A stretch of DNA of 624 nucleotides, from assembly GCF_003334385.1 (NCBI RefSeq), contig NZ_QOWN01000160.1; one strand, written 5' to 3'. Positions 1 through 624 of this stretch are shown one piece after another (the stretch's first letter is position 1; each line of letters starts with the position of its first letter). The stretch is from Escherichia coli (GTDB lineage Bacteria; Pseudomonadota; Gammaproteobacteria; Enterobacterales; Enterobacteriaceae). The position numbers were made by a program, and so were the translations under genes. The notes under the pieces were generated by a model. It saw nothing but the letters and a program-made list of their open reading frames with translations, did not search any database and had not been told where the DNA came from.

Positions 1-80
1 ACTACCATCGGCGCTACGGCGTTTCACTTCTGAGTTCGGCATGGGGTCAGGTGGGACCACCGCGCTACTGCCGCCAGGCA
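1..80 (-). rRNA. rrf: 5S ribosomal RNA, 5' portion (nt 1-80 of ~120); truncated by the window's left edge
   Basis: The reverse complement of 1-80 is UGCCUGGCGGCAGUAGCGCGGUGGUCCCACCUGACCCCAUGCCGAACUCAGAAGUGAAACGCCGUAGCGCCGAUGGUAGU, which matches the enterobacterial 5S rRNA 5' two-thirds essentially base for base. The mature 5' end (UGCCUGGCGG) is at window position 80. Confidence 0.95.
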
Positions 81-173
81 AATTCTGTTTTATCAGACCG
101 CTTCTGCGTTCTGATTTAATCTGTATCAGGCTGAAAATCTTCTCTCAATCCGCCAAAACACCTTCGGCGTTGT
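81..173 (-). other. 23S-5S intergenic transcribed spacer (part of the 9S pre-5S precursor region); no tRNA present
   Basis: This is the interval between the 23S 3' end (174) and the 5S 5' end (80). In RNA sense it reads ACAACGCCGAAGGUGUUUUGGCGGAUUGAGAGAAGAUUUUCAGCCUGAUACAGAUUAAAUCAGAACGCAGAAGCGGUCUGAUAAAACAGAAUU, nearly identical to the E. coli rrn distal spacer as I recall it. It is too short for a tRNA and has no cloverleaf-compatible sequence. The boundaries rest on the inferred mature ends of the flanking rRNAs. Confidence 0.85.
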
Positions 174-624
174 AAGGTTAAGCCTCACGGTTCATTAGTA
201 CCGGTTAGCTCAACGCATCGCTGCGCTTACACACCCGGCCTATCAACGTCGTCGTCTTCAACGTTCCTTCAGGACTCTCAAGGAGTCAGGGAGAACTCAT
301 CTCGGGGCAAGTTTCGTGCTTAGATGCTTTCAGCACTTATCTCTTCCGCATTTAGCTACCGGGCAGTGCCATTGGCATGACAACCCGAACACCAGTGATG
401 CGTCCACTCCGGTCCTCTCGTACTAGGAGCAGCCCCCCTCAGTTCTCCAGCGCCCACGGCAGATAGGGACCGAACTGTCTCACGACGTTCTAAACCCAGC
501 TCGCGTACCACTTTAAATGGCGAACAGCCATACCCTTGGGACCTACTTCAGCCCCAGGATGTGATGAGCCGACATCGAGGTGCCAAACACCGCCGTCGAT
601 ATGAACTCTTGGGCGGTATCAGCC
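174..624 (-). rRNA. rrl: 23S ribosomal RNA, 3'-terminal portion (about E. coli nt 2454-2904; domains V-VI); partial, continues beyond the window's right edge
   Basis: The reverse complement of 409-424 is AGUACGAGAGGACCGG, the universally conserved sarcin-ricin loop. The reverse complement of 519-529 is GGCUGUUCGCC, the A-loop. The reverse complement of 571-580 is CCUCGAUGUC, the peptidyl-transferase centre strand containing A2503-U2506. The reverse complement of 174-188 is GUGAGGCUUAACCUU, the enterobacterial 23S 3' terminus. The mapping E. coli nt = 3078 - window position places all of these at their canonical numbers, so there are no indels relative to E. coli across the region. Confidence 0.97.

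Follow-up and report, generated by a model that had tools for sequence, protein, structure and literature searches.

The 624-nucleotide stretch of Escherichia coli DNA analysed here (hereafter the window) is a piece of a known E. coli ribosomal RNA operon, an identification that we regard as virtually certain. It comprises the 3' end of a 23S rRNA gene, the spacer that follows it, and the first two thirds of a 5S rRNA gene. Read on the minus strand, it is, with next to no doubt, a promoter-distal segment of an rrn operon whose sequence type is that of rrnE and rrnA. Every base of it was known before, and the window contains no new biology. A sequence-only reading had described the window as the distal end of an rrn operon on the minus strand; this description is upheld by Rfam matches to large-subunit and 5S rRNA, and by 100% identity to the rrlE/rrfE and rrlA/rrfA gene pairs. 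One detail of it can be refined: the window does lie in the distal part of the operon, but because it stops at 5S nucleotide 80, short of the operon terminator and of the last 40 nt of 5S rRNA, it comes close to the distal end without reaching it.

Ribosomal RNA content of the window

In a search against all 4,227 Rfam covariance models, two families passed their curated gathering scores, both on the minus strand. LSU_rRNA_bacteria (RF02541) matches window positions 624..174 with 484.5 bits (gathering score 50; E = 7.4e-158), covering model positions 2480-2925 of 2925 with posterior probabilities near 1 along the whole match, which is clipped at the RNA 5' side by the window edge. 5S_rRNA (RF00001) matches window positions 78..1 with 56.6 bits (gathering score 38; E = 3.4e-11), covering model positions 1-80 of 120, and is clipped by the window edge at the RNA 3' side. 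On the minus strand, 451 nt of 23S rRNA are thus followed by a 93-nt spacer and by nucleotides 1-80 of 5S rRNA. This order of 23S, short spacer and 5S on one strand, which had been called canonical, is seen directly in the window (spacer 173..81); the upstream 16S and tRNA-Glu genes of a canonical rrn operon are seen only at the identical locus of strain MG1655 described below. Positions were mapped against rrlE, the window coordinate being 3078 minus the 23S position in E. coli numbering. The features, in the order in which they would be transcribed, are as follows.

174..624, minus strand: 23S rRNA, 3'-terminal 451 nt (E. coli 2454-2904); Rfam LSU_rRNA_bacteria match and identity to rrlE and rrlA
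571..584, minus strand: strand of the peptidyl-transferase central loop, 23S 2494-2507 (GGCACCUCGAUGUC); mapping against rrlE
517..531, minus strand: A loop (helix 92), 23S 2547-2561 (AUGGCUGUUCGCCAU), with U2552 and G2553; position mapping
404..432, minus strand: sarcin-ricin loop hairpin (helix 95), 23S 2646-2674, with the universal AGUACGAGAGGACCGG motif; position mapping
270..290, minus strand: helix 98 hairpin, 23S 2788-2808; alignment of the seven MG1655 operons
174..183, minus strand: 3' strand of helix 1 (about 2895-2904), partner of 23S nucleotides 1-8 and continuous with the processing stem; cofold from the identical MG1655 locus
81..173, minus strand: 23S-5S internal transcribed spacer, 93 nt; interval from the annotated end of rrlE to the annotated start of rrfE
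155..173, minus strand: 3' strand of the 23S processing stem, trailer nucleotides 1-19 (predicted RNase III substrate); cofold with the 23S 5' leader (outside the window)
79..88, minus strand: putative RNase E site 'a' of the 9S precursor, ACAGAAUUUG (plus-strand letters CAAATTCTGT); sequence present directly
1..80, minus strand: 5S rRNA nucleotides 1-80 of 120, with A at nucleotide 12 (window 69), the allele of rrfE, rrfA and rrfB; Rfam 5S_rRNA match and identity to rrfE and rrfA

A search with rRNA models had been proposed as a check on the initial identification, and it calls both rRNAs on the minus strand over 1-80 and 174-624. The 23S part had been expected to consist of the 3'-terminal 451 nt or so and to end near position 174, which is where the Rfam match ends. 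The 5S start proposed at position 80 agrees with NC_000913.3, whose annotation of rrfE (120 nt, beginning UGCCUGGCGG) puts the mature 5' end there, the Rfam model beginning at 78. The 116-nt rrf annotation of PGAP, like the Rfam 5S model, begins 2 nt inside the mature 5' end (window 78 vs 80); such automated 5S coordinates miss the leading UG as well as 2 nt of the 3' end.

The 23S part spans most of domain V, which contains the peptidyl-transferase centre, and all of domain VI. Its covariance score, the presence of conserved motifs at their expected positions and its identity to a characterised 23S gene all mark it as bacterial 23S rRNA. The Rfam consensus alignment shows the A loop hairpin as paired, and the sarcin-ricin motif AGUACGAGAGGACCGG is the same as the Rfam consensus. 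For nucleotides 2494-2507 we assume the role as a strand of the peptidyl-transferase loop that is established for E. coli 23S rRNA. The shorter part is identified as 5S rRNA by a covariance score above the gathering score together with identity to an annotated rrf gene; with 80 of 120 nt present, helices IV and V and the closing strand of helix I fall outside the window.

Occurrence in E. coli genomes and among rrn operons

With the RNA strand as query, megablast matched all the complete E. coli genomes searched (5,426/5,426), at a median of 8 places per genome, and many chromosomes are 100.0% identical over all 624 nt. The annotation beneath the E. coli matches reads '23S ribosomal RNA' and 'rrf: 5S ribosomal RNA', and 41,565 of the 41,610 places in these genomes are chromosomal. 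A BLASTN comparison with Enterobacteriaceae rrn operons, also proposed beforehand, gave the near-full-length hits that had been predicted, at 100.0% over 624 nt in E. coli and about 97% in Salmonella.

At a locus of E. coli K-12 MG1655 that is identical to the window (L001), the genes are purH, 16S, tRNA-Glu, 23S, 5S and yjaA, the gene context of the canonical rrnE operon. We aligned the 23S-5S junctions of all seven MG1655 operons with the window, rrnD being compared only over window 1-494 (493 of 624 nt). Both rrnE (rrlE b4009 - rrfE b4010) and rrnA (rrlA b3854 - rrfA b3855) show zero differences and have in common with the window the 93-nt spacer, the helix 98 allele and the 5S A12 allele. 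The five other operons (rrnB, rrnC, rrnD, rrnG and rrnH) share the architecture of the window at more than 98.8% identity and differ from it at 2-7 positions, with rrnD again compared over 493 of 624 nt. An attempt to assign the window to one operon failed, as rrnE equals rrnA across the segment. Since these two operons are identical over it and thousands of genomes match, the window cannot be assigned from its sequence to a single operon, strain or replicon.

The differences among the MG1655 operons fall in all three parts of the window. Within the 23S part, helix 98 is the sole variable element among most of the operons, and the window has the allele of rrnE, rrnA, rrnH and rrnC; rrnB, rrnD and rrnG depart from it at window 284, 282, 279 and 276 (23S 2794, 2796, 2799 and 2802). 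The U2794-A2802 pair of rrnE, rrnA, rrnH, rrnC and the window is replaced by C2794-G2802 in rrnG, rrnD and rrnB, a compensatory pair change with which the loop bases 2796 and 2799 vary together. A further 23S change, G2525A (window 553), occurs in rrnC alone. The spacer has three variable positions, two substitutions and a 1-nt indel, among the operons of this one strain: window 161 is G in the window and C or A in other MG1655 operons, window 148 is deleted in rrnB, rrnC, rrnD and rrnG, and window 91 is changed in rrnC (A/G). In the 5S part, nucleotide 12 (window 69) is A in the window and in rrfE, rrfA and rrfB, and C in rrfH, rrfG, rrfD and rrfC.

The rrn operons of Salmonella enterica have 23S, spacer and 5S in the same order, with about 96-97% identity over the window and scattered substitutions. 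Some Salmonella records align as two pieces, a pattern consistent with an indel or insertion inside the 23S part.

The 23S-5S spacer and precursor processing

On its own, the spacer forms three hairpins, in a fold slightly more stable than those of shuffled sequences (z -2.9). We also cofolded the 5' leader and 5' end of 23S rRNA with its 3' end and trailer, taking the whole operon from the MG1655 locus identical to the window. The two sides form a stem of about 28 pairs, continuous with helix 1, at -54.2 kcal/mol, compared with -33.4 +/- 2.9 kcal/mol for shuffled trailers (z -7.3 for the real stem). The pairing potential of the processing stem is demonstrated by this comparison, and it is the pairing expected of an RNase III stem flanking 23S rRNA, at which cleavage itself is putative. 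RNase III cuts the stems that flank mature 23S and 16S rRNA (PMC6582327). Beyond trailer nucleotides 1-19, the spacer continues with two further hairpins, then an unpaired ACAGAAUU, and then the UG that starts 5S rRNA.

The sequence ACAGAAUUUG consists of the last 8 nt of the spacer and the first 2 nt of 5S rRNA and is unpaired in the spacer fold. It places a single-stranded, A/U-rich ACAGA|AUUUG directly 5' of mature 5S rRNA, as would be required of RNase E site 'a', with cleavage again putative. The bond marked here is presumably the exact one cleaved, in which case the cut leaves 3 extra nucleotides (AUU) at the 5' end of p5S. We take ACAGAAUUUG to be the site 'a' reportedly described in the 9S precursor of 5S rRNA by Ghora and Apirion (1978) and Cormack and Mackie (1992). 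A passage in PMC10939160, citing the same two papers (Ghora and Apirion 1978, Cormack and Mackie 1992), gives E. coli 9S RNA the RNase E sites a and b, and one in PMC6582327, citing Ghora and Apirion 1978, assigns RNase E a part in maturing 5S rRNA.

From established E. coli biochemistry we infer the nuclease steps that would act on these elements. The region is transcribed within a long 16S-tRNA-23S-5S precursor, in which the first 19 nt of the spacer pair with the leader upstream of 23S rRNA to give a double-stranded stem that RNase III would cut. The 3' end of 23S rRNA would then be trimmed by an exonuclease (RNase T), and the remaining spacer would stay joined to 5S rRNA as the 9S precursor. 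RNase E would cut the 9S RNA at the ACAGA|AUUUG site, 3 nt upstream of mature 5S rRNA. The mature RNAs are structural and catalytic parts of the 50S subunit, to which the stretch contributes the peptidyl-transferase centre, the A loop, the sarcin-ricin loop and 5S rRNA.

Downstream of the window, at about 7672-7705 of L001 and after rrfE, lies a strong GC-rich hairpin with a U run after it (AAAAACCCCGGUCCAUAAGGCCGGGGUUUUUU), as seen when the 9S-like precursor is folded. This hairpin, outside the window, is the intrinsic terminator of rrnE.

Other features and alternative explanations

The window was also examined for features of a protein-coding gene, a defence system or a mobile element, and none were found in it. 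The initial claim that there is no room for a protein-coding gene is supported by the open reading frames, which were listed in six frames down to 20 aa and of which the longest encodes 51 aa. Neither of the two longest, of 51 and 44 aa, has a Pfam match, even at E <= 10. There is no tRNA in the window, as expected for rrnE and rrnA, both of which are without a distal tRNA, and neither strand of the window has a sigma-70-like promoter or an intrinsic-terminator-like site. The absence of repeat arrays, likewise claimed at the outset, holds: Tandem Repeats Finder reported no tandem repeats in the window, where the only repeats are two short two-copy direct repeats, which look like chance matches, and one 11-nt inverted pair (213-223 / 393-403). 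We rejected the inverted pair as a feature of its own; both of its arms lie inside the 23S part. A permissive Rfam search of the window gave no further family below E = 0.24. The candidate at that value, RAGATH-30 at window 65-121 on the minus strand, across the spacer-5S junction, scored 20.1 bits against a gathering score of 59.5 and was judged a chance match.

Three other explanations of the window were weighed. The least probable, to which we give almost no credence, is a small protein encoded within or antisense to the rRNA, for which the candidates would be the 51-aa frame at 356-511 on the minus strand and the 44-aa frame at 41-175 on the plus strand. Open reading frames of 20-51 aa do occur in several frames, but all are short, and most have GTG or TTG as a mechanical start; these two lack Pfam matches at E <= 10, a promoter-like site is absent from both strands, and an rRNA under structural constraint explains the sequence fully. 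Reading frames predicted within rRNA genes are known to have given rise to spurious proteins in databases. It is also very improbable, if a little less so, that processing releases the spacer as a stable small RNA with its own regulatory function, and we rate just as low the wider proposal of a stable RNA with a regulatory role that would be either the excised spacer or an antisense transcript of it. Small RNAs derived from tRNA-operon spacers offer a comparison case for such a hypothetical 23S-5S spacer RNA, and the three hairpins, which fold somewhat better than shuffled sequences (z -2.9), would suit it. Pairing with the 23S leader (z -7.3) is, however, a better explanation of the 5' hairpin region, no Rfam small RNA family matches (RAGATH-30 reaching 20.1 bits vs 59.5, E = 0.24), and three spacer positions vary among the operons of one strain. 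The structure of the spacer is accounted for by known processing elements and gives no pointer to a regulatory RNA.

Between these two in probability, and thus also very doubtful, is an origin of the window from a mobile element, plasmid or phage carrying captured or packaged host DNA. Near-identical segments are found in 25 Escherichia records filed as plasmids, among them small ones of 8.9 kb and 93.8 kb, as well as in a handful of short 'phage' records that lack annotation. Against this, the places matched in complete E. coli genomes lie on chromosomes in 41,565 of 41,610 cases, many of the 'plasmid' records have sizes of 0.4-4.9 Mb and resemble chromosomes or chromosome fragments, and the window contains no element-specific sequence; the identity of the sequence would be unchanged either way. 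Such plasmid and phage matches are rare, and they bear on those records rather than on the window.

The database records themselves are a mixed collection. PLSDB 'plasmid' records with the 23S-5S segment at 98.7-100% include CP088748.1 (8,897 bp) and NZ_OY843411.1 and NZ_OY757140.1 (93,760 bp), small records that could be assembly artefacts or real rRNA-bearing plasmids. Larger PLSDB records with the segment include AP026530.1 (655 kb) and NZ_OL790696.1 (4.8 Mb), and those of megabase size appear to be whole chromosomes or pieces of them under a plasmid label. Phage-collection records with the 23S-5S junction at 97-99.7% include OR845186.1 (2,537 bp), OR845267.1 (6,677 bp) and OR850889.1 (7,296 bp); these most likely represent host DNA in phage preparations, either as contamination or as generalised-transduction fragments. 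Several contigs of Salmonella draft genomes are present in the same phage collection.

Implications

The sequence-only reading had also specified what would count against it, namely the lack of an rRNA model match over 1-80 or 174-624, or a significant protein homology across those coordinates that is conserved outside rRNA operons. rRNA models match both spans, and the 51-aa and 44-aa reading frames have no Pfam match. Its conclusion that no novel system is evident was correct in its restraint: all the rRNA and rrn features that could be tested are present, those upstream of 23S at the identical MG1655 locus and the others in the window, and features of a protein-coding gene, defence system or mobile element are absent from it. 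The identity and coordinates of the window are demonstrated, and its discovery value is nil, the stretch being among the best-characterised DNA in biology. The useful outcome is a negative one, in that the window can be removed from candidate lists for novel systems.
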